Origin: Deltaproteobacteria bacterium
Lineage (GTDB): Bacteria; Desulfobacterota; DSM-4660; Desulfatiglandales; HGW-15
Direction of reading: 5' to 3'
DNA: 64,000 bases
Assembly: GCA_019310485.1 (NCBI GenBank)
Contig: JAFDEF010000007.1
Span: 4,434 to 68,433, forward strand
Below the pieces are notes generated by a model that was not told the origin of the DNA, made no database searches, and was given only the letters and a program-made list of their open reading frames with translations. Shown piece by piece: positions 217 to 32,281 of this stretch. Position numbers and translations under genes: made by a program. The first letter of the stretch is position 1, and each line of letters opens with the position of its first letter.

Positions 217-1494
217 TCAGTAACCCATAAAAATCTTAGGCAGAATCATTGAAAACCAAGGTACGTATGTCACGACAAACAAAAAGCCGATCATGGTTAA
301 AATATAGGGCAAAATTGGCTTGATGATTGATGTCAACGGTATCTTTGCAATTCCCGAGGCAATAAACAAGGACAGGCCAAAAGGGGGCGTGGTGAATCCG
401 ATTCCAAGATTCATGACAACAAAGGTGCCGAAATGCACTGGATGAATTCCCAGTTTCACTGCCACAGGAAAAAGAATGGGAACTAGAATAACGACGGAGA
501 GAGAGGCATCGAAAAACATACCCATAGCCAAAAGAAGGATGTTTACCGCAAAGAGAAACATCCATTTGCCACCTGGAATACTGATCATGAAATTAGCGAG
601 TTTCAGTGGAACCTGTTCTTTTCCCATGACCCAGCCAAAACCGTATGAGATCCCAACTACGAACATCACCACGCCGGAGATCACGGCAGACTTCCAGAGG
701 ATTTCAGGGAGCTGGGAGAGCTTTATCTCTTTATAGAAAACTACGGAAAGAAAGAATCCGTAAATAACAGCAACGGCGGCAGCCTCTGTGGCGGTGAAAA
801 TGCCAAGGATGATCCCCCCCAGGATAATAACCCCCATAAACAAGGAGAGGAATGATCTCTTGAAGGCGACAAGAAGCTCAATGAAAGTGGCCCTTTTTTC
901 TTTGGGTAAGTTCTTTTTCCGGGCAATAATGTAAGTAAGAATCATGAGGATAATACCCATGCTGATTCCAGGGATGAAACCGGCCAGAAAAAGTGCCCCT
1001 ATTGATGTATTTGTGAGGCTCCCAAAGACTACCATCGTAAGACATGGGGGGATCAGAACACCCATGCCACCTGCTGCAGTGACGAGAGCAGCGGCGAAAT
1101 TAGGTGCATAACCTCTTTTTTTCATGGGGGGAATCATTACACTCCCGATGGCAGCGGTATCAGCCGCAGAAGAACCTGAGATATCGGAGAAAAAAATTGT
1201 AGCCACCATGACAACTATTCCCATGCCCCCCCTGATATGACCCACCAATGCATTTGAAAGATCCACTATGCGCTTGGAAATACCACCTGTTTCCATGAGC
1301 ATGCCTGCCAGGACAAACAGTGGAACAGCCAGATACGGAAAATGGGCTAGGCCGGAGAAAATCTTTTCCGGGAGAATTTCAAGTGGAATCCCACCTGCAA
1401 TTAGAGCTGCTGTTGTTCCCACTCCGATGGCAAAAACAATCGGTGCCCCTAAAACCAGGAGGAAGAAAAAAACAACAAAGAGGGTAATCGCCAT
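217..1494 (-). CDS. dctM: TRAP transporter large permease (DctM family)
   Basis: 425-aa polytopic membrane protein with a DctM-like sequence. It sits directly downstream of DctQ- and DctP-like genes on the same strand. Confidence 0.9.
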   Translation of the reverse strand: MAITLFVVFFFLLVLGAPIVFAIGVGTTAALIAGGIPLEILPEKIFSGLAHFPYLAVPLFVLAGMLMETGGISKRIVDLSNALVGHIRGGMGIVVMVATIFFSDISGSSAADTAAIGSVMIPPMKKRGYAPNFAAALVTAAGGMGVLIPPCLTMVVFGSLTNTSIGALFLAGFIPGISMGIILMILTYIIARKKNLPKEKRATFIELLVAFKRSFLSLFMGVIILGGIILGIFTATEAAAVAVIYGFFLSVVFYKEIKLSQLPEILWKSAVISGVVMFVVGISYGFGWVMGKEQVPLKLANFMISIPGGKWMFLFAVNILLLAMGMFFDASLSVVILVPILFPVAVKLGIHPVHFGTFVVMNLGIGFTTPPFGLSLFIASGIAKIPLTSIIKPILPYILTMIGFLFVVTYVPWFSMILPKIFMGY

Positions 1495-1499
1495 ATAGC

Positions 1500-1985
1500 C
1501 TAGTCCTTATCAGGTGTTCTTCTAAACAGTGCAATGGTTTGCACAATTATGTGGACGAGCATGATAAGAGCAGAGATTGGGAGCACTGCGTACACAAAAG
1601 AAACGGAATAGCCAAGTGCTGCAGTTCGCTGCATCTTCATCATGACCGTCAGTTTGTACCCATAAACCAGCAAAACCACCAACATAAAGATAATGGCAAA
1701 ATTAATGATGATCCTCGCGATTTTTTGTGCACTCTCAGGAAAGCGTGAGAAGAAAATATCCAGCCGGGGGTGTTCGTCGTAGCGCAAGCCAACACTGGCT
1801 CCCAGAAGGCACATCCAGGCAAAAGCAAAAGTTGACATTTCCTCCGACCAGTCAAGGGGTTGATCCAGTACATATCTGAACAACACTTCAAGAAAAACCA
1901 GCACTGAGATGCCGGCTGTAAGCATGCCTGAGGTATGCCTTACAAGTGTGTTAAGGCGTTCACTAAAGTGTTCCAGCCTGCTCAT
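1500..1985 (-). CDS. dctQ: TRAP transporter small permease (DctQ family)
   Basis: 161-aa protein with four predicted TM helices, placed between the DctP and DctM genes. This is the classic TRAP gene order. Confidence 0.85.
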   Translation of the reverse strand: MSRLEHFSERLNTLVRHTSGMLTAGISVLVFLEVLFRYVLDQPLDWSEEMSTFAFAWMCLLGASVGLRYDEHPRLDIFFSRFPESAQKIARIIINFAIIFMLVVLLVYGYKLTVMMKMQRTAALGYSVSFVYAVLPISALIMLVHIIVQTIALFRRTPDKD

Positions 1986-2063
1986 GCGATTCTAACCTCA
2001 CTTAGAAACTGGTCACTTGATCAGGGGACTCTCAAAAAAGGGGCCCCTGAAACAAATGTCTTT

Positions 2064-3065
2064 TCACTTTACAGCCTTGATCTGTCGTATAATGTCCGTG
2101 CCGACTTTCCTGGAATACTTGTCGCTCACGGACTGGGATGCCTTCCTGAAAGCATCAATATCTGCCACGTTAAAAAGCACCTTGTTTTCACGGACAAGTT
2201 TGCCGATTATTCGATAGTCTATATCTTTGGTGATTTTGACGCCCACGGGAATAACAGCTTTTGCTGTATCAAGTATGGCTCGCTGTACGTCAGCGGGGAG
2301 TGAGTCAAATTTTTTCTTGGACATGGTAAGAACAAAAGATTGGTATATATGATTGGTAATTGAAAAATAGGGGGCCACCTCATAATGTTTCATGATTTCA
2401 TAAGAGTATGGTTCAAGACCTGCTGCATCCAGGACGCCCTGCTGAAGAGCAGTGTATACTTCCCCGAAGTTCATGGGCACTGCTTTTGCTCCCCAGGAAT
2501 TGATGACATCAACGTAAAGGGGATTTTGAATGACCCTGTATTTCATTCCCGCCACATCCGAGGGTTTATAAATTGGCCTGTGCCTGTTGTAAATTCCCCG
2601 AAAACCAAGGTTCATACAGGCAAGAACCATTACTCCATGCTTTTCCATTTTCTTATTAATAGACTGGCCTATCGGACCATTCATCACTTTTATGGCGTGG
2701 TCAACGCTTCGATATAGAAACGGGATATCAATATACACCATTTGGGGTTCCCACAGTGCCAGAAGGGAGCTCTGCACAATGGCCATGTCAACTGTGCCGA
2801 TGATTTCGCCTTCTATCGTGTCTTTTTCACCGCCAAGCTGGCCAGAATGGTAAATTTTGATGTTCACCTTGTCGCCAATCTTGTCTTCGAGCATTTGCTT
2901 AAACTTCTTGGAAACAACGGTGTACACAAAAAACGGGGGAGCCTCATTTGCAAGCGACAGCTCTATCTTCTTTGCTCTTGCCTGGGGGGGGTGAACGCCA
3001 ACGGCAAAGGCTACTGAAATCAGGGCTACCGCGCACGACAAAAGAATTCTTCTTGCTTTTTTCAT
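2064..3065 (-). CDS. dctP: TRAP transporter periplasmic solute-binding protein (DctP family)
   Basis: 333 aa with an N-terminal signal peptide (MKKARRILLSCAVALISVAFA...ARA). First gene of the TRAP operon. Confidence 0.9.
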   Translation of the reverse strand: MKKARRILLSCAVALISVAFAVGVHPPQARAKKIELSLANEAPPFFVYTVVSKKFKQMLEDKIGDKVNIKIYHSGQLGGEKDTIEGEIIGTVDMAIVQSSLLALWEPQMVYIDIPFLYRSVDHAIKVMNGPIGQSINKKMEKHGVMVLACMNLGFRGIYNRHRPIYKPSDVAGMKYRVIQNPLYVDVINSWGAKAVPMNFGEVYTALQQGVLDAAGLEPYSYEIMKHYEVAPYFSITNHIYQSFVLTMSKKKFDSLPADVQRAILDTAKAVIPVGVKITKDIDYRIIGKLVRENKVLFNVADIDAFRKASQSVSDKYSRKVGTDIIRQIKAVK

Positions 3066-3257
3066 TTCCTATCCTCCATTCGTTAAAATGTTATTGATCA
3101 CACATATGCCAAGAGGTCAATAAACTTGCTTTTTTCACCTCCTTCCTAAGGGTAAGCACGCTTTTCTAGTTCAAATACCTGAAACATTTATAGGTAGGTG
3201 AAGCCAGGCTTAAATAAGCCGGGCCTCACGTTCCAGTTGTATGACAAGTCTTCATTC

Positions 3258-4064
3258 CTATGGTAGGATGGCTATGACCCTCACCGGGAAGCCTGTCGCT
3301 TTTTCTGCCTTCGGGACCCCCACAAAGACCAGGAAGTCCCTGGGAGGCAATTGGTCCAGGTTGTTGAGCATCTCGATTTGCCACAAATTCTTTCCCAGAA
3401 CGTATGACTCCAGGGGCCATCCCTTGTCAACACCACAGGTTATTCCACTGTCAGTGTCGGGGGTTTCATGACCGATTGCCCTTATCTTCCTCTTTTCAAC
3501 GAGGTACTGAAGGGCCTCCTTGCCCCAGCCGGGATAGTGCTTCTGCCCCTTCTTGTCTTTTGCAAAAAAAGCATTCGGGTCAGTCCATCGGTAGCTCCAG
3601 TCGGTTCTCAGCATTACCATGGAGCCTTCGGGAATCGGACCATATTTTTCCTCCCATTTTTTGACGTCTGATAGCTTAAGCTGGTAGTCAAAATTATTGA
3701 TGGCTTGTCTGGAGATGTCTATGACACATCCCGGAAGTACAAATTCATAAGGCGGAATTGCATCCACCAGTCTCATCCCCTTGTGAAAATGACCTGCTGC
3801 ATCCAGATGGGTTCCATATTGACCGGCGTGTGTGAAGATCTGGACAGCTCCACCGTATATTGACTTCCTTTTGGGCTTGGGAAGGCCTTCCGGAATAGGG
3901 ATGGAAGGGGAAAACGCGTGGGTCAAATCCACAAACTTATCTTTCGGGATCGAACTGATAGGCTTCCCCATTACAGTAGGGCCTTTTACCATGCTCATCC
4001 CACAACCGGAAAGGGCCAGGCACACTGCACCGATCAGGACTGAGTACATAATAGTGGTTTTCAT
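3258..4064 (-). CDS. Cyclase-family protein (kynurenine-formamidase-like), predicted lipoprotein
   Basis: Lipobox LALSGC near the N-terminus. Contains the motif HAGQYGTHLDAAGHFH, which resembles the HxGTHxDxPxH metal site of the putative-cyclase family. Confidence 0.75.
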   Translation of the reverse strand: MKTTIMYSVLIGAVCLALSGCGMSMVKGPTVMGKPISSIPKDKFVDLTHAFSPSIPIPEGLPKPKRKSIYGGAVQIFTHAGQYGTHLDAAGHFHKGMRLVDAIPPYEFVLPGCVIDISRQAINNFDYQLKLSDVKKWEEKYGPIPEGSMVMLRTDWSYRWTDPNAFFAKDKKGQKHYPGWGKEALQYLVEKRKIRAIGHETPDTDSGITCGVDKGWPLESYVLGKNLWQIEMLNNLDQLPPRDFLVFVGVPKAEKATGFPVRVIAILP

Positions 4065-4169
4065 TTTTTCATCCTCCTTCCGTTTATTAAAGTTCGGCGT
4101 TTTGTGTTGAACAGGTTACTGGTTAGCAAATGAACCTTTTCCCTCAAGCGTTTTGTTGGTGACGCCTGG

Positions 4170-4679
4170 TTAAGTTTTTCGCGGAGGCCAATCCCCAGGC
4201 TTCAAAAGGAGCCTTGACACAGTATCAAGACTCCCTCGCTTTTCTCTCGTTTTGGGAATCACACGATCCGCATTAATGCCCCATGCCGTACCGTAACTCA
4301 AAAGTTTATAAAATGCTTTGAGATCCCATGCCGGGTTATGCCCCTCTTCCCTTAAACGTTTGTATTCATCCAGAACCTCTGGGAACTTATATAGCACGAA
4401 CCAGTTGAGTCTTGCCTTTTCAGGTATGTCTGGGTTCTTTTCGTACCACAAGAAAACTCCTTGCTCTTTGGCGATTTTCTTTGCCTCCGGGAGAAGCTTT
4501 TCATAGTCTTCAGGGTAAAATGGCGGAGAGAACGCTATTTTTTTGCACTCATTGGCCAGACATTCGCAAAAGGCGGTTATCATCCCTAGGATAAAGGATT
4601 TTCTGTTAAAGCAATGAGAGTGTTGATTTTTTTTGCTCAATAGTTGGTCCTCAACACGTATAGAAGTAGTTTCATACAA
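4170..4679 (-). CDS. Hypothetical protein, last gene of the liv-type operon
   Basis: 169-aa ORF, co-directional with livF and 14 nt downstream of it. No motif recognised. Confidence 0.5.
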   Translation of the reverse strand: MYETTSIRVEDQLLSKKNQHSHCFNRKSFILGMITAFCECLANECKKIAFSPPFYPEDYEKLLPEAKKIAKEQGVFLWYEKNPDIPEKARLNWFVLYKFPEVLDEYKRLREEGHNPAWDLKAFYKLLSYGTAWGINADRVIPKTREKRGSLDTVSRLLLKPGDWPPRKT

Positions 4680-4692
4680 ACCCGTGCCAAGC

Positions 4693-5406
4693 CTAGCCTG
4701 TGGCGAGGTACGCTTTTTTCATCATTTCGTTATTAAGCAAGTTTTCTGCCTTGTCGTGCAAAACGATTTTTCCCAGTTGCAAAACGTAGCCGCGGTCTGC
4801 TATTGATAAAGCCATATTTGCGTTTTGCTCGACCACAAATATCGTGACACCTTCCCTATTTACCCTCTGAATGATTTCAAAGGAATTTTCAACCAGCACG
4901 GGCGCAAGCCCCATGGAGGGCTCATCCATCAGCAAAAGCTTGGGCCGCGACATGAGGGCTCGGCCCATAGCCAACATTTGCTGTTCTCCTCCACTAAGGG
5001 TCGCCCCGTATTGTTTGAGCCTTTCTTTGATTCTAGGAAAGAGGTTAAATACCCGCTCCATATCCTGGGATATACCCCTAGGGTCATTTCTGAGGTAAGC
5101 GCCCAGCTCCAGGTTTTCAAGAACAGTGAGCCTGGGAAAGATTCTTCTATTTTCTGGCACTATCGACACACCCCTTTGCACAATCTTCCCGGTGGGGAGG
5201 CCGCTTATTTTATCTCCCATAAACTCCACTCTTCCCCGGGCCGGCTTCACGACACCTAGGATGGTTTTAAGGGTAGTTGATTTGCCGGAAGCATTCCCGC
5301 CCAACAGGCAAACCAGTTCTTTTTCTTCAATATGAACCTGGATATCTTCAAGAGCCTGGATTTTCCCGTAAAAAACGTCGACATCTATGAGTTCTAGGAT
5401 CCTCAC
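4693..5406 (-). CDS. livF: Branched-chain amino-acid ABC transporter ATP-binding protein (LivF type)
   Basis: Walker A (GGNASGKST), ABC signature (LSGGEQQ) and Walker B (LLLMDEP). Confidence 0.9.
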   Translation of the reverse strand: MRILELIDVDVFYGKIQALEDIQVHIEEKELVCLLGGNASGKSTTLKTILGVVKPARGRVEFMGDKISGLPTGKIVQRGVSIVPENRRIFPRLTVLENLELGAYLRNDPRGISQDMERVFNLFPRIKERLKQYGATLSGGEQQMLAMGRALMSRPKLLLMDEPSMGLAPVLVENSFEIIQRVNREGVTIFVVEQNANMALSIADRGYVLQLGKIVLHDKAENLLNNEMMKKAYLATG

Positions 5407-22363: not shown

Positions 22364-23119
22364 TTGACAGGAGAGAAAGAGCCTGCTAGGGAAGGATATA
22401 GTTTCTCTGAGAGCGGAGCGCAGGATTGGTTTCGCATAAGACACATTCGAGGTGAGTTTGCGGTGACCTGGCCTGAATTCAAGATAACCTCAGCTTACAA
22501 GGACAGGTATCCTGGCCTGAGTTTCGGTATGGCTTTGATTTGCCAGTGCCGGCCCTCGACAAATCCACCTGGTTTTGACCAACACAAGAGGAAATTGCTT
22601 CGCAAGATGAGAAAAAAAGAGACTCTCGCGGAGATCTCAAACCGAATTGAAATTTATGACAAATTTTTTAAGAGTTTCGGTTTTGAATGCCCTTTGCCAA
22701 AACACCTCAAGCGTACGATCTACAGCGGCTTTCCCCGGTATAACTTGATGGTGGATACCCACTTTATGGCTGAAATGTGTGCGGGAATTCTGGTAGCGGT
22801 CGCCGACTATGACCGCTTTGAAGGCGGGCTCACCCTGGATCTTGCCAGTGAAGGGGAGACCTGCCTTGGAATGGGTAAGCGAACACTGGTTGCCAGGCAG
22901 GGGGAAATAGTATTCCGAGACGAAAAAGACATTGTTTGCATCCTTTGCCAGGGAGCGGATGAGAAGACCAGGGTGAGAGACACAACGCGTAACGTGCTTT
23001 TTTATTCATACGCGGTTCCCGGTATTGAGGCAGGGCATCTTGAAAAAGGGCTAAAGATAGCTGCTGAAACCATGGCTGAATTCGGTGGGGGTACAATCGA
23101 GGGCATCCAGATATACTGA
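22364..23119 (+). CDS. Probable B3/B4 tRNA-binding-domain-like protein
   Basis: 251-aa ORF whose layout resembles B3/4-domain proteins, from memory only. The true start may be the GTG near 22463. Confidence 0.5.
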
Positions 23120-23170
23120 ATAACTTCTTGGGTGCATTTGGACTAATTTAAAGGGTGCGGGAAAAAAAGC

Positions 23171-23199
23171 TTGACACGGCAAAATCAATAAGCTAGTTT
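23171..23199 (+). promoter_or_regulatory. Sigma70-type promoter of the BCAA operon leader
   Basis: TTGACA (23171-23176), a 17-nt spacer, then TAGTTT (23194-23199), about 30 nt upstream of the leader ATG. Confidence 0.45.
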
Positions 23200-23232
23200 T
23201 ACACCATTATATAAACTGGTCACTTAGCAAGC

Positions 23233-23352
23233 ATGCAAAGTCTTACTCAAATCATAATTCTCATTACCAGCGCAATAGGGGTACTCCTGTCCCTATTGCT
23301 CCTCCTTTGGGTCGTAAACCTGAAGCGCCCGGGCCTGGTAATGAGAACATGA
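23233..23352 (+). CDS. Leader peptide of the cimA-leu-ilv operon (39 aa, 20 of 39 residues Ile/Leu/Val)
   Basis: MQSLTQIIILITSAIGVLLSLLLLLWVVNLKRPGLVMRT. It is embedded in mutually exclusive helices and followed by an intrinsic terminator. No clear SD. Confidence 0.6.
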   Translation: MQSLTQIIILITSAIGVLLSLLLLLWVVNLKRPGLVMRT

Positions 23353-23373
23353 CTTGAGTAAAATTCCTTCAAA

Positions 23374-23410
23374 AACCGTTATCAGGCCCTCCTGATAACG
23401 GTTTTTTTTT
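23374..23410 (+). terminator. Intrinsic terminator (attenuator) upstream of cimA
   Basis: Perfect 13-bp stem AACCGTTATCAGG/CCTGATAACGGTT with a 4-nt loop, followed by a run of T residues. It lies 24 nt before the cimA start. Confidence 0.85.
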
Positions 23411-23436
23411 GAAAGAGCTGTGCAGGGGGCAAGGTG

Positions 23437-25011
23437 ATGAAAAGGCAAATCATCCTTTATGACACCACGTTAAGAGATGGTACCCAGGGAGAACAGATTG
23501 CTCTTTCAGCAGAAGACAAACTCCGAATCGCAAAGAAACTTGATGAGTTTGGAATCTCTTATGTTGAAGGGGGCTGGCCGGGGTCCAATCCGAGAGACGT
23601 GCGCTTTTTCAAAATGGCACGCCGCGCTACGTTCCAGACTGCACGTATTACGGCGTTCGGCAGCACGCGGCGCCCAGGCCTGCGTCCTGAAATGGATAAG
23701 AACTTGAAGGCGCTTCTGGAGACAGAGGTGCAGACAGTGGCGATATTTGGGAAGAGCTGGGATTTACACGCATCCAAGATCTTGGGTATTTCCATGGATG
23801 AGAACATTTCAATGATAGAAGACAGCGTTGCATACTTGAGAAAACGAGATCGGGAACTGATCTACGACGCTGAGCACTTTTTCGATGGATACAAGCGAAA
23901 CCCTGAATATGCTCTTAAAACACTTAAAGCAGCAGAAAACGGGGGCGCGCACGTGATCGTTTTGTGCGACACGAACGGGGGAACTTTTCCATATGAAATA
24001 AGCAAAATAATAGAAGAGGTAAAGGAGCAAGTGCCTGTGCCCCTTGGTATACATGCCCACAATGATTCAGGTCTAGCTCTTGCCAATACCCTAGAGGCGG
24101 CGCGCGAAGGGGCGACAATGGTTCAGGGGACGATTAACGGGTACGGAGAGCGTTGCGGCAATACGGACCTGATTAGTGCTATCGGGAATCTTCAGTTAAA
24201 AATGGGCTATGCATGCATCTCTCGTGAAGCTGTTAAGAGGCTAACCGAGCTTTCCCGCTTTGTAAGTGAAGTTGCGAACGTACCCCCTGAGAATCAGCGC
24301 CCGTTTGTGGGCAAAAGTGCTTTCGCACATAAGGGCGGGGTTCATGTAAGTGCGATATTGAAAGATCCGGCAGCTTATGAACATATCGCCCCCGAGCTGG
24401 TGGGTAACAGAAGAAGGGTGCTGGTATCAGACCTTTCCGGCAAGAGCAACATTGCCTACAAAACCCGTGAAATGGGCATAAAGGTGGGGGGAAATGGCTT
24501 CAACAATGAGAAAATTGTTCAAAAGATCAAGGAACTGGAAGACCAGGGCTACCAGTTCGACGCTGCGGAAGGCTCGCTGGAGCTTCTGATCAAGAAAGTG
24601 ACAGGCCAGTTTGAGGAACCATTCAAGCTTGAATCCTTCAGGGTGACGATTGAGAAAGACAGGTCAGGGCCGAGCACTGCTCATGCCACAATAAAGATTT
24701 CCGTGGGGGAAGATCAAGAGATAACCGCTGCAGAAGGTGACGGCCCTGTTAATGCACTGGACAATGCCTTGAGGAAGGCACTTACGAAATTCTTTCCACA
24801 GATTGACGAGATGGGTCTGGTTGACTTTAAAGTCAGGGTGATCGGTGCCGGAAAAGGGACGGCAGCCAAGGTCAGGGTTCAAATAGAATCAAGGGACTCA
24901 AGCGAAATATGGTCTACTATCGGAGTCTCTGAAAACGTTATTGAAGCAAGCTGGCAGGCGCTGGTGGACAGCGTGCAGTACAAACTATCCAGGGTTCTCA
25001 ATGGGAAATAG
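23437..25011 (+). CDS. cimA: Citramalate synthase-type member of the 2-isopropylmalate synthase family
   Basis: About 524 aa. The N-terminus (LYDTTLRDGTQGEQIALSAEDKLRIAKKLDEFGISYVEGGWPGSNPRD) and the length match the CimA-type clade as I recall it. A GTG at 23434 is an alternative start. Confidence 0.75.
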   Translation: MKRQIILYDTTLRDGTQGEQIALSAEDKLRIAKKLDEFGISYVEGGWPGSNPRDVRFFKMARRATFQTARITAFGSTRRPGLRPEMDKNLKALLETEVQTVAIFGKSWDLHASKILGISMDENISMIEDSVAYLRKRDRELIYDAEHFFDGYKRNPEYALKTLKAAENGGAHVIVLCDTNGGTFPYEISKIIEEVKEQVPVPLGIHAHNDSGLALANTLEAAREGATMVQGTINGYGERCGNTDLISAIGNLQLKMGYACISREAVKRLTELSRFVSEVANVPPENQRPFVGKSAFAHKGGVHVSAILKDPAAYEHIAPELVGNRRRVLVSDLSGKSNIAYKTREMGIKVGGNGFNNEKIVQKIKELEDQGYQFDAAEGSLELLIKKVTGQFEEPFKLESFRVTIEKDRSGPSTAHATIKISVGEDQEITAAEGDGPVNALDNALRKALTKFFPQIDEMGLVDFKVRVIGAGKGTAAKVRVQIESRDSSEIWSTIGVSENVIEASWQALVDSVQYKLSRVLNGK

Positions 25012-25169: not shown

Positions 25170-26714
25170 ATGGACAACAAGGTTATTGTCTTTGATACCA
25201 CGCTGCGGGATGGAGAGCAGTCCCCCGGAGCCAGCATGAATGCGGCCGAAAAGCTACGTCTGGCGATGCAACTTGAAAAGCTGGGAGTTGATGTCATAGA
25301 AGCTGGCTTTCCCGCTTCGTCTCCCGGCGATTTTGAATCCGTGAAAATGATAAGCAAAAAAATGAACAGGACTCGAGTAGCGGCCCTGGCCAGGACGTCT
25401 AAAGACGACATTGATCAAGCGTGGGCTGCGGTTTGTGAGGCAGTGCGACCAAGAATACATGTGTTTATCGCAACTTCCGACATCCACCTGCAACACAAAC
25501 TGAAAATGACTCGCGAAGAGCTGATAAAAGAAGCTGTCGCGGGAGTCAGGTATGCGAAGAAATTCACTGATGATGTGGAGTTTTCAACTGAAGACGGTAC
25601 CAGAAGTGATAGGGACTTTGTAAGCAAGGTACTTGAAGCCGTCATTGATGCAGGTGCCAGCACGGTGAATATTCCTGATACTGTTGGATACGCACTTCCT
25701 GAAGAGTTTGGTGAACTGATTTCCTACATAAGGCAGCACACTGGAAATATTGACAAGGCTGTTATGAGCGTGCACTGCCATAACGACCTGGGCCTTGCTA
25801 CTGCCAACACGCTTGCGGGCCTGAGGGCGGGTGCCCGGCAGGCGGAAGTTACCATAAACGGGATTGGTGAGAGGGCTGGAAACACCTCACTCGAAGAAGT
25901 GGTCATGGCTCTTTCCACCAGAAAAGACCTGACGGATCTCAGCACATCAATCAACACGGAGGAGATTTATCCAACCAGCCGATTGGTTTCCATGATAACC
26001 GGCATTGTGGTGCAGCCCAACAAGGCCATTGTGGGGGCAAATGCTTTTGCCCATGAGGCGGGCATTCATCAGGATGGGGTGCTTAAGAACCCCATGACAT
26101 ACGAGATTATGAAACCGGAAATCATAGGTCTTGTCAGCAACAAGCTGGTAATGGGTAAACATTCAGGAAGGCATGCATTCAAAGCGAGGATCCTCGAACT
26201 GGGCTATGACCTGAATCAAGAAGAGCTTGATCGGCTTTTCAAGAAGTTCAAGGAGCTGGCTGACAAAAGGAAAGAGATAGTTGATGAAGATATCGAGGTT
26301 CTTGTAGCAGAAGAACTTTTGCGAGGCCAGGATAAATACGAACTTGATTACCTCAACGTAGTGAGTGGTACCGTGGCGGTCCCTACGGCCACTGTCAAAC
26401 TGCGGATAGACGGAGAAGAGGTTCAGGGTGCCGGCTTTGGAGTGGGCCCTATTGACGCCACTTTTAATACTATTGCAAAAATGGCCGGGACCAAATCGAA
26501 GCTCGTGCGGTTTTCAATCAATGCCATCAGTGGAGGAACCGATGCTCAAGGTGAAGTTACGGTGCGGCTTCAGGAAAACGGCCTGGTTGCGCTGGGCAGG
26601 GGAGCAGACCCTGACATCTTCATCGCCAGCGCAAAAGCCTATGTCAACGGACTTAACAGGCTCGAACACCTTAAGAAAAACCCCTCACTTGTTTCGCAGG
26701 CAAGGGCTCTTTGA
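25170..26714 (+). CDS. leuA: 2-isopropylmalate synthase
   Basis: 514 aa with VFDTTLRDGEQSPGASM, HCHNDLGLATANTLAG and a C-terminal LeuA dimerisation/regulatory region. Confidence 0.9.
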   Translation: MDNKVIVFDTTLRDGEQSPGASMNAAEKLRLAMQLEKLGVDVIEAGFPASSPGDFESVKMISKKMNRTRVAALARTSKDDIDQAWAAVCEAVRPRIHVFIATSDIHLQHKLKMTREELIKEAVAGVRYAKKFTDDVEFSTEDGTRSDRDFVSKVLEAVIDAGASTVNIPDTVGYALPEEFGELISYIRQHTGNIDKAVMSVHCHNDLGLATANTLAGLRAGARQAEVTINGIGERAGNTSLEEVVMALSTRKDLTDLSTSINTEEIYPTSRLVSMITGIVVQPNKAIVGANAFAHEAGIHQDGVLKNPMTYEIMKPEIIGLVSNKLVMGKHSGRHAFKARILELGYDLNQEELDRLFKKFKELADKRKEIVDEDIEVLVAEELLRGQDKYELDYLNVVSGTVAVPTATVKLRIDGEEVQGAGFGVGPIDATFNTIAKMAGTKSKLVRFSINAISGGTDAQGEVTVRLQENGLVALGRGADPDIFIASAKAYVNGLNRLEHLKKNPSLVSQARAL

Positions 26715-26751
26715 TGAGTGAAACGGGTGAATAATAAGAGGAGGGTAATGG

Positions 26752-28017
26752 ATGGACACTCCCATGACAATGACGGAAAAGATACTGGCAGCGCATGCAG
26801 GGATAGATCGGGTTGTTCCCGGAGAGTTAATTAAGGTTAATGTTGACATCGCACTTGCAAACGATATTACAGCACCGCTGGCTATAGGGGTGTTCAATGA
26901 AATTGGAAAAGAAGAAGTCTTTGACCCTGAAAAAGTGGCTTTGGTTGCAGACCATTTTGTGCCAAACAAAGATATTGCCTCGGCCGAGCAGGCGAAAATG
27001 ATGAGGGAATTTGCCATGGGGAAAAGAGTACGCCACTACTATGAGTTAGCTGAGGGCGGGATTGAACATGTCATCATGCCTGAAAAAGGGCTCGTAATGC
27101 CGGGGGAAGTAGTGATAGGAGCTGACAGCCACACCTGTACTTATGGGGCCCTGGGTGCATTTGCTTCAGGTGTCGGCAGCACAGATCTCGGGGTGATTTT
27201 ATCGACCGGGAAAATATGGATCAAGGTTCCCTCAACCATCAAGATACAATACGAGGGGAAACTGAAACCGTGGGTTGGCGGAAAGGATTTGATCCTCTTT
27301 ACGCTGGGTAAGCTCGGCGTGGAAGGAGCTAATTACAAAGCAGTTGAGTTCTCGGGTGAGGTGGTGAGAAACCTACCAATGGATCACAGGTTTACCATGG
27401 CCAATATGGCAGTGGAGTGTGGAGCAAAGAACGGCATCTTTGAAGTCGATGAAATGATCATAAACTATGTTTCGAAAGTGACGGGAAGAAGCCCGAAAGA
27501 GCTCAGGAGCGATTCAGGTGCCGGGTTTGAGCAAGTGCTGACGATCAGTGTGGACAACATTGAACCCCAGGTCGCTTTTCCTCACTCCCCGGATAATGTT
27601 TGCCCTGTATCAAAGGTCGACAATATTTTGCTCGATCAGGTCTTTATCGGATCCTGTACCAATGGCCGGCTTGATGATCTGCGCATCGCAGCAAAAATAC
27701 TGAAAGGCAGGTCTGTGGCAAAGGGGCTTAGGCTCATTATCATTCCTGGCTCATCTAATATTTATAAGAAGGCTATCCAGGAAGGTCTCATCGAGACCCT
27801 GGTGGAGGCGGGCGCAGTAATCGGCCCGCCATGTTGCGGACCCTGTCTGGGGGGCCACATGGGTGTCCTTGCCTCGGGCGAAAGGGCGCTGTCCACGAGC
27901 AACAGGAATTTCCGTGGCAGGATGGGTCATCCGGATAGTGAAGTTTACCTGGCAAACCCTGCACTCGCTGCTGCCTCTGCTGTGTTGGGGAGGATAGGGT
28001 CTCCGGATGAACTTTAG
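26752..28017 (+). CDS. leuC: 3-isopropylmalate dehydratase large subunit
   Basis: 421 aa of the aconitase family, with GADSHTCTYGALGAFA and IGSCTNGR...CGPCLG cluster ligands. Confidence 0.9.
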   Translation: MDTPMTMTEKILAAHAGIDRVVPGELIKVNVDIALANDITAPLAIGVFNEIGKEEVFDPEKVALVADHFVPNKDIASAEQAKMMREFAMGKRVRHYYELAEGGIEHVIMPEKGLVMPGEVVIGADSHTCTYGALGAFASGVGSTDLGVILSTGKIWIKVPSTIKIQYEGKLKPWVGGKDLILFTLGKLGVEGANYKAVEFSGEVVRNLPMDHRFTMANMAVECGAKNGIFEVDEMIINYVSKVTGRSPKELRSDSGAGFEQVLTISVDNIEPQVAFPHSPDNVCPVSKVDNILLDQVFIGSCTNGRLDDLRIAAKILKGRSVAKGLRLIIIPGSSNIYKKAIQEGLIETLVEAGAVIGPPCCGPCLGGHMGVLASGERALSTSNRNFRGRMGHPDSEVYLANPALAAASAVLGRIGSPDEL

Positions 28018-28112
28018 AAACGTTAAACCAAACTTGAACGATTCCCAAGGTGGGAGCAGATGCTGTGAAATTGTGAATCGTGAAGCGCTGGAATCAACTT
28101 AGAGGGGGAATA

Positions 28113-28607
28113 ATGAAACTCAACGGCAGGGTATGGAAATTCAATGATAACATTGACACGGACGTGATCATTCCGGCCAGTTTTCTTAACACTTCAGATA
28201 GGGAAGAACTTGGCAGACACTGCTTTGCTTATCTCAGGCCTGATTTTACCCGGAACGTTAAAACAGGGGACATTATAGTGGCTGGAAGGAATTTTGGTTG
28301 TGGCTCATCCAGAGAGCACGCTCCGCTGGCGCTGAAGGAGGCGGGCGTTCGGCTCATTATTGCAAAAAGTTTTGCGAGAATATTTTACAGAAATGCCTTT
28401 AATATTGGGCTTCCCCTGCTGGAATCAGAAGAGGTTCAGGACAGAGTCTCGGAGGGTGATCGTATTAGCGTTGATCTGCTTTCAGGGGAGATAACCGGAG
28501 GGTCGTTGGAAAAAGCGCTTTTTGCCAGACCGATACCGGATTTCATGATGGAGATCGTGCGCTCCGGCGGCTTAGTGAAATACATAAAGGAGAAGGGAAC
28601 GTTTTAA
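28113..28607 (+). CDS. leuD: 3-isopropylmalate dehydratase small subunit
   Basis: Swivel-domain motif [13 protein letters not shown]. The ATG at 28113 has GAGGGGG upstream; the ORF extends to a GTG at 28080. Confidence 0.9.
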
Positions 28608-28674
28608 CTTTGTCCAAAAATGGAGGAATGACCCGTTTCCACAGAGAACCTAAAAAGGAGGGATAGCCATTAAA

Positions 28675-30357
28675 TTGTTAACAGGTGCACAAATTCTAAT
28701 AAAGACGTTACAGGAGGAAGGGGTGGATACCATTTTCGGGTATCCGGGTGGCGCCACTGTTGATATTTATAACGAGCTGGTCAAAACCGAAATCGGACAC
28801 ATCACGGTCCGCCACGAGCAGGGTGCTGTTCATGCAGCCGATGGCTACGCCAGAGCTTCAGGCAAGGTGGGGGTCTGCTTGGTGACCTCAGGGCCTGGAG
28901 CCACCAATACGGTATCGGGCATTGCCTCGGCATTTATGGATTCGATCCCCGTGGTTGTTCTCACCGGCCAGGTGCCGACTTCGCTAATTGGAAATGATGC
29001 GTTCCAGGAGGTAGACATTGTAGGCATCACCAGGCCCTGCACCAAACATAACTACCTTGTGAAAGACGTAAGGGAGCTTTCTCAGACCGTCAGGGAAGCG
29101 TTCTTCATCGCAAGATCAGGGCGCCCCGGTCCGGTACTGGTGGACCTTCCCAAAGACGTGATTCAATCAAGAGCCACTTATAAGACCATAAAAGAAGTGC
29201 GGCTCAGGTCATATAACCCAACGTATGAACCAAATGCCAAGCAACTGCCAAAGGTTGTGAAACTTATAAGAGAGTCCACACGCCCGGTTATTTTGGCCGG
29301 AGGCGGTGTCATTCTCTCCGGCGCCTCGGATGCACTCAGGAAATTCGCAAAGAAGATTCAGTCTCCTGTTACAGCCACGCTAATGGGCCTCGGAGGGTTT
29401 CCGGCAAGTCATCCCTTGTGGCTCGGAATGATTGGTATGCATGGAACTTACAGGGCTAACATGGCATCAGGAGAATGTGACCTTCTCATCGCTATCGGCG
29501 CCCGTTTCGACGATCGGGTCACCGGCAGGACGGACACCTTTGCTCGGGGGGCCAAAATTGTCCATATTGATATTGATCCAACATCGATTCGAAAGAATGT
29601 ACCCGTTGCGATTCCGATCGTTGGTGACTGTAAAATTACCCTGGAAAAACTCAACAAGATTCTGGAGCAAGAAGACCTTGGGGATTTCAAAAAGATCCGC
29701 AGGCCATGGTTTCGTCAAATAGAGAAATGGAAAGCTACCCAGCCGCTTGCCTATCACCAGGAAGATATGATCAAGCCCCAGTTTGTGATAGAGAAGTTGT
29801 ATGAAGTAACGAAAGGCAAGGCGATCATCACGACGGAAGTGGGTCAAAATCAGATGTGGGCAGCCCAGTTTTACAAATTCGATTACCCGAATTGTTTTAT
29901 TACCTCAGGGGGCCTTGGGTGCATGGGGTTCGGGTTTCCTGCTGCTCTGGGTGCTCAGATAGCGTGTCCGGGGAAATTGGTGGTTGATGTCGCAGGGGAT
30001 GCAAGCATCCAGATGAACATTCAGGAAATGGCTACTGCGGTGCAATACAATCTCCCTGTAAAAATCGTTGTACTTAATAACGGCTACATGGGAATGGTGC
30101 GGCAGTGGCAGCAGTTGTTTTATGAAAAGCGCTATGCATGCACGGAAATGGAGGCAGCCCCTGATTTTGTAAAGCTGGCTGAGGCATACGGTGCTGTGGG
30201 TCTTAGGGCCACAAGGCCTGAAGAAGTGGAGCAGGTGTTGAATAAGGGCATGTCGACAAAAAAGCCGGTCATCATGGATTTTGTCGTTGAACGCGAAGAG
30301 TGTGTCTACCCCATGGTTCCGGCTGGCTCGCCTATAACAGAGATGTTACTTGTATGA
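28675..30357 (+). CDS. ilvB: Acetolactate synthase large subunit
   Basis: 560-aa TPP enzyme with GYPGGA, GPGATN, and GGLGCMGFGFPAALGA...GDASIQMNIQE. Confidence 0.9.
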   Translation: MLTGAQILIKTLQEEGVDTIFGYPGGATVDIYNELVKTEIGHITVRHEQGAVHAADGYARASGKVGVCLVTSGPGATNTVSGIASAFMDSIPVVVLTGQVPTSLIGNDAFQEVDIVGITRPCTKHNYLVKDVRELSQTVREAFFIARSGRPGPVLVDLPKDVIQSRATYKTIKEVRLRSYNPTYEPNAKQLPKVVKLIRESTRPVILAGGGVILSGASDALRKFAKKIQSPVTATLMGLGGFPASHPLWLGMIGMHGTYRANMASGECDLLIAIGARFDDRVTGRTDTFARGAKIVHIDIDPTSIRKNVPVAIPIVGDCKITLEKLNKILEQEDLGDFKKIRRPWFRQIEKWKATQPLAYHQEDMIKPQFVIEKLYEVTKGKAIITTEVGQNQMWAAQFYKFDYPNCFITSGGLGCMGFGFPAALGAQIACPGKLVVDVAGDASIQMNIQEMATAVQYNLPVKIVVLNNGYMGMVRQWQQLFYEKRYACTEMEAAPDFVKLAEAYGAVGLRATRPEEVEQVLNKGMSTKKPVIMDFVVEREECVYPMVPAGSPITEMLLV

Positions 30358-30417
30358 TCGTAGCGGTAGGTAAGATGCCCTTTTCTGGTGTTGCGGTGAG
30401 CTGGCCTGATGCCCGAG

Positions 30418-30530
30418 GTGGAGCCCCACGGGCAAGCCCGTGGCACCACTTAGTCTCGCCGAATTGCTTCGCAATCGGCGGGACTTAGTGGTACGACATC
30501 CCGCCCGCCCTTAACCGCATTCATCCACGG
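30418..30530 (+). repeat. Family-3 structured repeat, in the ilvB-ilvN spacer
   Basis: A core of about 113 bp matches the reverse complement of 54913-55026, with 2-3 differences by hand alignment. It contains the hairpin CCACGGGCAAGCCCGTGG and a roughly 45-nt imperfect hairpin (CCACTTAGTC...GACTTAGTGG). Confidence 0.85.
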
Positions 30531-30551
30531 TAAAAGCAAGGAGAGGAAATC

Positions 30552-31052
30552 ATGGTAGCAAACGAGAGCACAAAGAGAAATATACTGTCTCTACTGGTTG
30601 ACAACAAGCCCGGGGTCCTGTCCCGTGTTGCTGGATTTTTTAGCGGGCGGGGGTTTAACATTGACAGTCTTTGCGTTTCGGAGACCACGGACCCGCTTGT
30701 CTCAAGAATTACCTTGGTGGCCATGGGTGACATGGCTATTCTTGAGCAGATCAAGAAGCAGTTGAATAAACTGATTAACGTGATCAAAGTCATGGATTTT
30801 ACGGACACAGAATTTGTTCAGCGAGAGACGGCACTTATCAAGGTTAGGGCAAAAGTGAACCAGCGTGCTGAGATTCTACGGATGGTGGATATTTTTAGGG
30901 CGAAAGTCGTAGACGTTGCATCAGAATATTACACGATAGAGATCACCGGTGATGAAGGCAAACTGAGCGCTTTTCTCAGGCTCTTGAAGCCTCTTGGCAT
31001 AAAAGAGATCGCAAGGACCGGGGTGGTGGCACTTGCTCGCGAAAAAAAATAG
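30552..31052 (+). CDS. ilvN: Acetolactate synthase small (regulatory) subunit
   Basis: 166 aa with an ACT domain (ILSLLVDNKPGVLSRVAGFFSGRGFNIDSL). Confidence 0.9.
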   Translation: MVANESTKRNILSLLVDNKPGVLSRVAGFFSGRGFNIDSLCVSETTDPLVSRITLVAMGDMAILEQIKKQLNKLINVIKVMDFTDTEFVQRETALIKVRAKVNQRAEILRMVDIFRAKVVDVASEYYTIEITGDEGKLSAFLRLLKPLGIKEIARTGVVALAREKK

Positions 31053-31090
31053 AGCAGCGCTCAATGGCCGCTTGGACTTTGTTCAGAAAA

Positions 31091-31199
31091 GTAAACCCTG
31101 TGGAATTTCGCACGGGGCATTGAACCCCGTGCGAAAAAGCGGAAAAAAACTTTATTTACCATCCCCGTGCTCCCGCACGGGGCGTTCCTACGGGGTAAA
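31091..31199 (+). repeat. Family-2 structured repeat, in the ilvN-ilvC spacer
   Basis: 109 bp, starting GTAAACCC and ending GGGGTAAA. Hairpins TCGCACGGGG/CCCCGTGCGA and CCCCGTGC/GCACGGGG. Nearly identical to 39048-39156, 46784-46892 and 61823-61930. Confidence 0.9.
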
Positions 31200-31219
31200 T
31201 AAACGGGAAAGGAGGATAT

Positions 31220-32281
31220 ATGGCAAAGATTGATTTTGGCGGAGTTGTGGAGGACGTGGTTACTTCAGAGGAATTTCCCTTGCAGAGGGCTCGGGAAGTG
31301 CTTGAGGATGAAGTGGTGGCTGTCCTTGGATATGGTGTTCAGGGCCCTGGCCAGGCTTTGAATATGAGAGATAACGGGGTACGGGTGATCATCGGTCAAA
31401 GGCAAGGCGGGCCGTCCTGGCAAAGAGCCCTGGAAGATGGATTTGTACCCGGGGAAACCCTCTTCCCACTGGCTGAAGCCGCAGAAAGGGGGACAATCAT
31501 TCAATACCTCGTTTCAGATGCGGGCCAGGTGGCAACCTGGGCGGAGGTGAAGCCATGCCTTCAGGAAGGCAATGCCCTTTATTTTTCCCATGGATTTTCA
31601 ATTGTTTACAGTGACCAGACAGGAATCATTCCCCCTGAGAACGTAGATGTTATCATGGTAGCGCCGAAAGGGTCGGGGCGCACCGTTAGGAGCAATTTCC
31701 TCGAAGGGAGCGGGATTAATTCAAGCTACGCAGTCTACCAGGACTCCACAGGCAGAGCGCTTGAGCGAACCTTGGCCCTTGGCATTGCAATAGGATCAGG
31801 GTATCTTTTTCCCACAACCTTCGAGAAAGAAGTGCACAGCGATTTGGTTGGAGAAAGAGGCGTGTTAATGGGATGCTTGGCTGGTGTCATGGAAGCCCAG
31901 TATAAACTACTTCGCGCGCACGGCCACACTCCAAGTGAGGCCTTCAACGAAACCGTGGAAGAGCTGACCCAGAGCCTTATCAGGTTGGTAGCTGAAAACG
32001 GTATGGACTGGATGTATGCTAACTGCAGCACCACAGCCCAGAGAGGGGCGCTTGACTGGCGGCATCGGTTCCGCGAAGCCGTGAAACCTGTTTTCGATGA
32101 GCTTTATAAAAGCGTGGTGAGCGGAGAGGAAACCCGAATCGTGCTGGATGCCAACAGTGCCCCAGATTACAGGGAACGACTGCGGGAAGAGCTCGACGAA
32201 ATTAAGAATTCGGAGATGTGGAGAGCTGGCGCTGCTGTTCGTGCGTTGAGACCGGAGAACAGAGCCAAGAAAAAACTGTAG
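31220..32281 (+). CDS. ilvC: Ketol-acid reductoisomerase
   Basis: 353 aa with the Rossmann motif LGYGVQGPGQALNMRDNG and KARI-like sequence throughout. Confidence 0.9.
   Translation: MAKIDFGGVVEDVVTSEEFPLQRAREVLEDEVVAVLGYGVQGPGQALNMRDNGVRVIIGQRQGGPSWQRALEDGFVPGETLFPLAEAAERGTIIQYLVSDAGQVATWAEVKPCLQEGNALYFSHGFSIVYSDQTGIIPPENVDVIMVAPKGSGRTVRSNFLEGSGINSSYAVYQDSTGRALERTLALGIAIGSGYLFPTTFEKEVHSDLVGERGVLMGCLAGVMEAQYKLLRAHGHTPSEAFNETVEELTQSLIRLVAENGMDWMYANCSTTAQRGALDWRHRFREAVKPVFDELYKSVVSGEETRIVLDANSAPDYRERLREELDEIKNSEMWRAGAAVRALRPENRAKKKL

Follow-up and report, generated by a model that had tools for sequence, protein, structure and literature searches.

A candidate leader-peptide transcription attenuator upstream of the cimA-leuACD-ilvBNC operon in a deltaproteobacterium and its uncultured relatives

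The region between positions 23171 and 23410 of a 64,000-nucleotide stretch of deltaproteobacterial DNA (contig JAFDEF010000007.1, positions 4,434 to 68,433; the whole stretch is called the window here, and positions refer to it) very probably contains a transcription attenuator of the ribosome-mediated or leader-peptide kind, known classically from trp and ilv operons, which would control the operon cimA-leuACD-ilvBNC. Such an attenuator had been proposed from the letters of the window alone (referred to below as the sequence-only reading), and it is supported by the results described here: a conserved leader open reading frame (ORF), a conserved terminator, a conserved antiterminator (helix 2:3) and, in most relatives, the competing anti-antiterminator (helix 1:2). 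The genes of the operon make isoleucine, leucine and valine, and the first gene downstream of the attenuator is cimA, the gene for citramalate synthase. The mechanism is an ordinary one; new for it, as far as the literature could be searched, are the lineage and the first gene.

In the proposed mechanism transcription would start about 26 nt 5' of a 39-codon leader ORF. If charged tRNA-Ile were scarce, the first ribosome would stall on the Ile codons at 23251-65 and cover region 1; scarcity of tRNA-Leu would probably have the same effect at the Leu run (23293-307). Region 2 (23331-47), thus left free, would pair with region 3 (23376-89) once the latter had been transcribed, and the 13-bp antiterminator would block the terminator and let RNA polymerase read into cimA. 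With isoleucine and leucine plentiful, the ribosome would reach the stop codon (23350-52), where it would mask region 2 but not region 3; regions 3 and 4 would then form the terminator, and the transcript would end around 23408-10. If the leader were not translated, regions 1 and 2 would pair and termination would again follow. Stalling of the ribosome on the Ile codons and a kinetic coupling of transcription and translation are presumed in this scheme, leucine is presumably sensed besides isoleucine, and a hairpin located inside the leader ORF and enclosed by helix 1:2 (hairpin A) would act as a pause or synchronising hairpin.

The leader was folded between 23205 and 23412, a fold of 23200-23415 having been suggested in the sequence-only reading. 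The minimum free energy (MFE) was -79.2 kcal/mol, as compared with -43.4 ± 4.3 kcal/mol for 200 dinucleotide shuffles (z = -8.3), none of which was as stable as the native sequence. The MFE structure was the terminated conformer, in which helix 1:2 encloses two internal hairpins and is followed by the terminator. The core of region 1 (23260-70) proved to be perfectly complementary to the core of region 2 (23335-45), as claimed. The terminator arms are CCGTTATCAGG (23376-86) and CCTGATAACGG (23391-401), followed by a T-run (23402-10). Its perfect stem and its T-run had been recognised correctly; the stem, given as 13 bp, has an 11-bp mixed core and extends to 16 perfect base pairs if the flanking A-U pairs are counted. 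Similarly, the 2:3 pairing exists, but the 11 pairs given for it (nine Watson-Crick and two G-U) were too few; 13 pairs are formed in the window between 23331-43 and 23377-89 (11 Watson-Crick and two G-U), and the antiterminator takes in the CCC of the terminator loop. The duplex energies were -19.1 kcal/mol for the 1:2 core, -31.0 kcal/mol for 1:2 with its outer extension, -24.2 kcal/mol for 2:3 and -21.4 kcal/mol for 3:4, so calculated the three helices are well matched. The Ile codons 23251-65 abut or overlap region 1 (23258-71), and the stop codon comes 3 nt after region 2 and precedes region 3 by 23 nt. A simple terminator scan did not list the leader terminator, because the A-U extension of the stem consumes part of the T-run; this is a limit of the scanner and not an absence of the terminator.

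Relatives were collected by a CimA protein search with one genome per species, which gave 80 loci (59-81% protein identity) from metagenome-assembled genomes of Desulfatiglandales-like, Desulfobacteraceae-like and Syntrophales bacteria. Using the terminator arm pattern CCGYYDTCAG, the element was detected shortly 5' of cimA in 71 loci out of the 78 in which the start of cimA is present, in all three groups and in one copy per locus; together with that of the window this makes 72 elements. Two forms could be distinguished. In the long form (alignment A1, 57 sequences consisting of 56 relatives and the window) the peptide is mostly 37-40 residues long and follows the pattern x5-N-I-I-x-I-I-x-A-x-G-x3-S-L-L-L-L-L-L...K-x-P-G-L-I-M-x-stop. 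The short form, found in Syntrophales (alignment A2), encodes peptides of mostly 16-28 residues, e.g. MFRNSITIIIILGIIIEGANM; apart from region 2 and the same terminator it retains nothing but Ile runs, and hairpin A is missing. When the 64-kb window was searched by nhmmer with A1 and A2, a single copy was found, and the pattern CCGTTATCAGG, allowing up to one mismatch, gave no further convincing site there. The loci without the element were the seven most distant ones (L070, L073 and L076-L080, from Desulfosarcinaceae, Desulfatitalea and similar). At L073 cimA directly follows ilvC and therefore appears to be an internal gene of an ilv operon.

The terminator and the antiterminator are both conserved. 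The terminator arms are nearly invariant over three orders, and in the 57 long-form sequences 97.9% of the terminator cells were paired, with covariation. Within the leader no block is better conserved than region 2 (consensus CCGGGCCTGATAATG). The 2:3 helix was paired at 93.2% in A1, as opposed to 22-52% when the 3' partner was slid in the alignment by 1-3 columns, and six of its pairs, some of them with the terminator loop, showed compensatory change; the corresponding pairing values for the short form were 89.7% and 20-50%. When duplex energies were scored for each sequence as z values against shuffles, with z < -2 taken as significant, the 2:3 duplex was significant in all 57 sequences. 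Moreover, bases of the terminator loop covary with the GGG located 5' of region 2, which they would seem to have no other obvious reason to match.

Helix 1:2 was less uniform. In the long form its eight core pairs were 74-100% paired, with weaker flanks, and the duplex reached z < -2 in 47 of the 57 sequences. In the short form RNAalifold independently found helix 1:2 together with the terminator; here 1:2 was 85% paired, with compensation in six of ten pairs, and 3:4 was 98% paired. Hairpin A was paired at 97.9% in the 57 long-form sequences, one of its pairs being C-G in some sequences and U-A in others (39 versus 16), and was also recovered independently by RNAalifold. Two further helices were rejected as conserved features. 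Hairpin B was only 49% paired in A1, although many of its stems appear to be compensated locally. The outer extension of helix 1:2 (23243-55 with 23349-61), which had been included in the sequence-only reading, does exist in the window, with -12.3 kcal/mol and z = -4.8. Among the relatives, however, z < -2 was reached in only 15/57, and the extension is specific to some lineages.

The leader ORF, as had been described, has Ile, Leu or Val in 20 of its 39 positions (5 Ile, 11 Leu and 4 Val). This share of 51% compares with 24% in the seven proteins of the operon (binomial P = 2e-4). A homologous Ile-rich ORF, defined as having at least 15 codons, at least three of them for Ile, and ending just 5' of region 3, was present in 70 of the 72 elements. 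In the 57 aligned leaders, codons 8, 9, 11 and 12 specified Ile in 45, 53, 55 and 40 cases, respectively (70-96%), with different codons in use (at codon 8, ATT 23, ATC 14 and ATA 8 times). The retention of Ile at codons 8 and 9 is not accounted for by RNA pairing, since these two codons pair poorly in helix 1:2. Leu was found at codons 21-26 in 57, 57, 53, 35, 44 and 37 of the 57 leaders, and these columns vary synonymously (CTG, CTA, TTG, CTC, CTT). The distance between regions 1 and 2, which lies within the ORF, was 54, 66, 69, 72, 75 or 78 nt, a multiple of three, in 56/57 sequences; the untranslated spacer between regions 2 and 3 was 25-37 nt long, and its lengths were split 30:16:11 modulo 3. 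The start codon was ATG in 49/57. The position of the stop codon just 3' of region 2, already pointed out for the window, was held in 44/57, the stop column lying two codons (2-3) after region 2 and containing TAG 22, TAA 16 and TGA 6 times. This conservation pattern is what would be expected of a translated sequence and gives strong indirect support to translation; in vivo the leader ORF is probably translated.

These observations bear on the possibility that the leader is a translation-independent RNA switch, in which binding of a metabolite, tRNA or regulatory protein to the conserved leader, above all to hairpin A and region 2, would decide between the same antiterminator and terminator, and the ORF would be incidental. 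The strong conservation of hairpin A in both sequence and pairing (97.9%), the unusual stability of the fold (z = -8.3), the lack of a Shine-Dalgarno sequence before the ORF of the window and the report of T-boxes in Geobacter, another delta-proteobacterial lineage (PMC3766115), would all be compatible with it. On the other hand, frame-preserving indels (56/57), interchange of stop codons and synonymous turnover of Ile and Leu codons would be unexpected of a non-coding aptamer, the short leaders of Syntrophales do without hairpin A, having kept only their Ile-rich ORF besides region 2 and the terminator, and the codon content tracks the downstream genes (see below). Rfam gave no support either. 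A cmscan search of 22900-23700 with E values up to 10 produced only matches below the gathering score, all on the terminator segment (atoC, which scored 19.7 bits where 50 is the gathering score, and, weaker still, ncr982 and two microRNA families), and neither the T-box model nor Leu_leader, Trp_leader, His_leader, Thr_leader and the other amino-acid leader families of Rfam matched in this search; a scan of the whole window gave nothing at gathering scores. The atoC match was rejected, as it covers the terminator only. Taken together, a translation-independent switch appears quite improbable.

It was also considered whether the ORF could be the gene of a small hydrophobic membrane peptide with its own terminator, having no regulatory role and placed before cimA by coincidence. 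The peptide is 39 residues long and transmembrane-like, a Pfam search of the leader peptides gave only sub-threshold matches, to transmembrane segments (E = 0.01-0.03), and there is a conserved C-terminal motif, K-x-P-G-L-I-M. This motif, however, corresponds exactly to region 2, which is complementary both to region 1 and to the terminator arm, whereas the N-terminus is not conserved, the short-form peptides share nothing but the Ile runs, and one group of homologues has lost the Ile/Leu runs altogether (those preceding MatE genes, see below). In addition, the terminator stands between the promoter and cimA with no further promoter-like site after it, and the element accompanies cimA, leuA or ilv genes whatever the upstream neighbour. 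An NCBIfam search with six representative leaders and E values up to 10 gave no match. A mere membrane peptide gene is thus scarcely credible, and the ORF is best regarded as the leader peptide of an attenuator.

To model the switch, the transcript was cut just before region 4, and a 30-nt ribosome footprint was placed on the Ile codons. In the cut transcript of the window without a ribosome only two bases of region 3 were paired with upstream sequence, because region 2 was held by helix 1:2. With the footprint on the Ile codons 11 bases of region 3 were paired with region 2. The identical switch was obtained in 65 of the 71 homologues, the partner being always located 3-13 nt before the stop codon. 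These cut-transcript folds replaced the equilibrium fold of the full leader, which was discarded as a test, being invalid for a kinetic switch. For the basic choice between readthrough and termination, regions 2, 3 and 4 together with the placing of the stop codon are enough, and helix 1:2 is needed only for the default state in which there is no translation.

The codon content of the leaders was compared with the genes that follow them. Where leuA follows cimA (45 loci), the longest Leu run had a median of 5 and the longest Ile run a median of 2. In long-form leaders preceding cimA alone or cimA with leuCD (7 loci) the medians were 3 for Leu and 5 for Ile, and in the short-form leaders (12 loci) they were 1 and 3, respectively. 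The Leu runs of loci with and without leuA differed with a Mann-Whitney p of 6e-8, a value uncorrected for shared ancestry. These data suggest that Ile is the universally conserved regulatory codon, and that the Leu run is an add-on accompanying leuA. Isoleucine synthesis by the citramalate route has its committed step in citramalate synthase, and as cimA stands for the first step of this route, an invariant Ile codon makes biochemical sense. In one relative (L003, 2760-2946) Val codons replace Ile (MLHLLNNVVVITT..., AAC GTC GTC GTT ATT ACC), which may reflect a shift of sensing from isoleucine towards valine.

A wider family was revealed by an exact-pattern terminator scan of metagenome contigs, which gave at least 119 stretches, and by homology searches with profiles made from A1 and A2; in total about 190 copies of the leader were found. 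In 72 loci the element precedes cimA and in about nine it directly precedes leuA, an example being the Val- and Leu-rich leader MNKYTVNIIGLVRVALVSVLALLMVEV. Leader ORFs in relatives, which the sequence-only reading had proposed to look for upstream of cimA or leuA, were thus found before both genes. The leaders before leuA (L093, L105, L111, L112, L134, L165, L179 and L181) retain regions 1 and 2 and the terminator and are followed by leuA(-leuCD-ilvB). The ORFs of L093, L105, L165 and L179 are rich in Val and Leu and end before region 2, those of L112 and L181 are closer to the long form found before cimA, and the regulatory codons thus appear to have been re-tuned to the operon. One copy each was found before ilvD-ilvB (L198, leader MVDFFYSIIAIISAAGISVPLLLLLWVVRLKFLDLIMT; ilvD was called from its N-terminal sequence only) and before ilvBNC (L166, leader MIVDTHSIIVIIGAVGVVVSLLLVLLGG...), both leaders being rich in Ile, Leu and Val. 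The cimA, leuA, ilvD-ilvB and ilvBNC contexts strengthen the interpretation that the element would respond to specific amino acids.

Three further contexts were seen. Seven copies (L083, L094, L100, L129, L164, L173 and L176) precede genes of a three-subunit 2-oxoacid:ferredoxin oxidoreductase; in this operon a P-loop ATPase-like protein of about 230 residues, without a Pfam match, comes first and is followed by POR_N, TPP_enzyme_C and POR proteins and a flavin-reductase-like protein (in L173, leader 251-418, genes 502-3928). Six copies (L123, L132, L138, L160, L163 and L189) precede genes assigned by Pfam to an acyl-CoA dehydrogenase and to ETF beta and alpha (in L160, leader 889-1066, genes 1758-4732). 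The oxidoreductase operon might make branched-chain amino acid (BCAA) keto-acids by reductive carboxylation under Ile/Leu attenuation, and the acyl-CoA dehydrogenase/ETF operon might feed BCAA synthesis by the same type of reaction. Finally, in 15 loci (L095, L103, L108, L113, L141, L147, L153, L156, L162, L168, L172, L178, L184, L191 and L197) the leader precedes the gene of a conserved 96-residue protein belonging to no Pfam family, which is followed by a MatE transporter gene (in L197, leader 1300-1476, genes 1580-3316).

Several results weigh against the attenuator reading and have to be set against the evidence above. The window's leader ATG is not preceded by a recognisable Shine-Dalgarno sequence, and only 36 of the 71 homologues have a Shine-Dalgarno-like 4-mer. 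The Ile codons ATT ATC sit within region 1, and RNA pairing may explain part of their conservation. Pairing of 1:2 was weak in 10 of the 57 long-form sequences, and RNAalifold applied to A1 missed helix 1:2, although it recovered hairpin A and the terminator; helix 1:2 was therefore judged from per-pair counts and per-sequence duplex energies. The equilibrium fold of the full-length leader kept the terminator in 69 of 71 cases in spite of a footprint on the Ile codons. The full transcript of the trp attenuator also forms the terminator at equilibrium; with the terminator winning in this way, a switch would have to be a kinetic one, as in the trp case. For leucine sensing the geometry is less clean than for isoleucine, since regions 1 and 2 would both remain uncovered by a ribosome on the Leu run (23293-307). 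The leaders preceding MatE genes, MNIIFQYANNIVKATGIRVNSLWKTHKVERMKLPGLIMP, have lost the Ile/Leu runs with the scaffold intact, and thus the scaffold alone does not prove amino-acid sensing. Lastly, an attenuator-like leader of ilvB in Streptomyces coelicolor was unaffected by mutation of the regulatory codons (PMC1262725), and therefore architecture alone does not prove the mechanism.

The MatE copies raise the question whether the same architecture could be a general sensor of translation stress, reporting any slowing of the ribosome, be it by global starvation or by ribosome-targeting compounds. These leaders (MNIIFQYANNIVKATGIRVNSLWKTHKVERMKLPGLIMP) have few Ile/Leu codons, yet region 2 and the terminator are preserved in them and the stop has stayed in place, and any stall upstream of region 2 would favour helix 2:3; in the MatE copies the attenuator could indeed have been re-used as a sensor of translation stress or drugs. 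For the copies preceding cimA, we consider a general sensor very improbable: they hold the Ile columns at 70-96% despite nucleotide turnover, the lengths of their Ile and Leu runs follow the regulated gene, cimA or leuA, and the leader of the window has 5 Ile and 11 Leu codons among its 39.

The contexts described above raise a broader question, namely whether the attenuator of the window is one copy of a single homologous scaffold that has spread among the operons of Desulfobacterota with its codon block re-programmed for each target. We regard the case for this as evenly balanced. Regions 2, 3 and 4 are almost frozen in sequence and would represent the fixed core of the scaffold; a possible reason is that the Ile codons AUU AUC of region 1 dictate GAUAAU in region 2, which in turn would fix region 3 as (G)UUAUC and region 4 as GAUAAC. 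The codon block consists of Ile alone before cimA or cimA-leuCD, Ile and Leu before cimA-leuA, Val and Leu before leuA, Ile, Leu and Val before ilvD/ilvB, and Ile and Leu before the oxidoreductase and acyl-CoA dehydrogenase/ETF operons, and no obvious run is seen before MatE. If the spread holds, it shows that an attenuator can be copied and re-tuned by codon swaps.

The features of the window are compiled in Table 1. The putative sigma-70 promoter, TTGACA-17-TAGTTT, was found exactly where the sequence-only reading had placed it, and the end of its -10 hexamer is 33 nt from the leader ATG. An exact TTGACA followed by a 16-18 nt spacer and TAnnnT was present in at least 41 of the 71 relatives, mostly 27-50 nt 5' of the leader ATG, with the position of TTGACA kept. 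With a conserved TTGACA promoter directly 5' of it, the leader is taken to be the 5' end of the transcript. A simple promoter scan did not list the promoter of the window, because its -10 hexamer is weak (3/6 matches to TATAAT); this was taken as a limit of the scanner and not as absence. Downstream, the end of the terminator is 26 nt from the cimA ATG, the proposed gene order cimA-leuA-leuC-leuD-ilvB-ilvN-ilvC agreed with the protein family matches, and a terminator scan of the + strand of the operon (25170..32281) found no convincing internal terminator.

Table 1. Coordinates of the candidate attenuator, its promoter and the downstream operon in the window
Feature	Position	Strand	Basis or remark
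Putative sigma-70 promoter: TTGACA 23171-76, 17-nt spacer, TAGTTT 23194-99	23171..23199	+	sequence
Leader ORF, 39 codons, MQSLTQIIILITSAIGVLLSLLLLLWVVNLKRPGLVMRT; ATG 23233, stop TGA 23350-52	23233..23352	+	sequence and homologues
Outer extension of 1:2, 5' arm	23243..23255	+	pairs with 23349-61, one A.C mismatch
Putative Ile regulatory codons: ATC ATA ATT 23251-59, ATT 23263-65, ATA 23275-77	23251..23277	+	overlap region 1 or lie just 5' of it
Region 1, core CTCATTACCAG 23260-70; 5' arm of 1:2 anti-antiterminator helix	23258..23271	+	pairs with 23333-47 in the MFE structure
Hairpin A: GCAATAGGGG, 8-nt loop, TCCCTATTGC (23272-81 with 23290-99)	23272..23299	+	-15.0 kcal/mol
Five Leu codons CTA TTG CTC CTC CTT, preceded by CTC CTG 23284-89	23293..23307	+	sequence, alignment
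Hairpin B (weak): CTTTGGGT, 5-nt loop, ACCTGAAG	23305..23325	+	-8.1 kcal/mol
Region 2 GGGCCTGGTAATGAGAA, core CTGGTAATGAG 23335-45; encodes P-G-L-V-M-R	23331..23347	+	pairs with region 1 or region 3
Outer extension of 1:2, 3' arm, containing stop TGA 23350-52	23349..23361	+	sequence, fold
Intrinsic terminator: 16-bp perfect stem AAAAACCGTTATCAGG / CCTGATAACGGTTTTT, loop CCCT, 9 T	23371..23410	+	-21.4 kcal/mol
Region 3: left terminator arm CCGTTATCAGG and loop CCC	23376..23389	+	pairs with region 2 (13 bp) or region 4
cimA, citramalate synthase; Shine-Dalgarno GGGGG 23425-29, ATG 23437, stop ends 25011	23425..25011	+	TIGR00977, 751 bits versus cutoff 450
leuA	25170-26714	+	NCBIfam match
leuC	26752-28017	+	NCBIfam match
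leuD	28080-28607	+	NCBIfam match
ilvB	28675-30357	+	NCBIfam match
ilvN	30552-31052	+	NCBIfam match
ilvC	31220-32281	+	NCBIfam match

Some features of the surroundings were also recorded. The gap of 195 nt between ilvB and ilvN (30358-30551) contains GC-rich inverted repeats, namely CCACGGGCAAGCCCGTGG (30426-43) and, near 30445-92, a long imperfect hairpin; there is no T-run after the repeats. The gene directly 5' of the attenuator (22364-23119, + strand) encodes a B3/4-domain protein of 251 residues, related to the phenylalanyl-tRNA synthetase beta subunit, and is syntenic with the attenuator in 18 related loci. In seven relatives (L009, L010, L015, L024, L039, L046 and L053) 100-350 nt of extra sequence separate the terminator from cimA, apparently small repeat elements that were inserted there; the insert of L010 contains a long GC-rich inverted repeat, CACCCCCACCC...GGGTGGGGGTG.

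The remark that such attenuators are rarely documented in Deltaproteobacteria agrees with the negative Rfam results and with the literature search. In the searchable full-text literature the element was not described, and this includes PMC545781, PMC2965389, PMC3766115, PMC1262725 and PMC4833913; a 2010 survey (Lopatovskaya et al.) may cover delta-proteobacteria and may overlap. As far as the literature could be searched, it would be the first leader-peptide attenuator assigned to citramalate synthase. According to a published view, amino-acid attenuators originated essentially in gamma-proteobacteria (PMC3766115), and the present candidate runs counter to that view.

The element also offers a testable regulation of BCAA synthesis in a large uncultured group of anaerobic Desulfobacterota, comprising Desulfatiglandales-like, Desulfobacteraceae-like and Syntrophales bacteria. 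To our knowledge, the regulation of genes in this group has hardly been explored. For annotation, the 39-codon ORF would be a leader peptide rather than a hypothetical membrane protein, and a covariance model built from the approximately 190 copies would let annotators mark the element.

Among known systems the ilvGMEDA attenuator of E. coli and Salmonella, with its 32-residue leader peptide IlvL, is similar in having a long hydrophobic leader with interspersed Ile, Leu and Val codons and, presumably, multivalent BCAA sensing, and in its alternative 1:2, 2:3 and 3:4 helices with an intrinsic terminator before a BCAA operon. There is no sequence similarity between the two, and the leader-peptide models of NCBIfam and Rfam did not match the present element. 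Moreover, the first gene here is that of citramalate synthase, which belongs to another route to isoleucine, the invariant regulatory residue is Ile and not Val, two extra hairpins lie inside helix 1:2, and the antiterminator recruits the terminator loop. With the trp and leu attenuators of E. coli it shares regulatory codons in or beside region 1, a stop codon placed so that the terminating ribosome masks region 2, and a terminator more stable than the antiterminator, which makes the decision kinetic. The present leader, in contrast, is about 2-3 times longer, its regulatory codons are those of Ile with Leu added, and the Rfam models Trp_leader and Leu_leader did not match it.

Outside gamma-proteobacteria, leader-peptide attenuators have been predicted or studied for ilvB(NC) of Actinobacteria and, as an ilv-leu attenuator peptide, in Staphylococcus aureus (PMC1262725, PMC11857589, PMC5794164). 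These are likewise short ORFs with runs of Ile, Val and Leu, overlapping or preceding a terminator hairpin 5' of BCAA operons. They belong to other phyla and are unrelated in sequence, and the present family differs from them in being backed by a far larger number of sequences and by leader codons that follow the gene content of the operon.

The T-boxes reported to regulate genes in Geobacter (PMC3766115) are, as the present candidate would be, cis-acting terminator/antiterminator switches located before amino-acid genes in a delta-proteobacterial lineage and sensing the aminoacylation status of tRNA. A T-box, however, works without an ORF, by direct binding of uncharged tRNA, whereas the element described here shows strong evidence of a coding frame and no match to the T-box model. 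As with T-boxes, copies of the scaffold stand in front of several operons and differ in their specificity element. If the proposed spread of the scaffold is true, it would be a modular leader-peptide counterpart of the T-box, defining an Ile/Leu attenuation regulon in these anaerobes.

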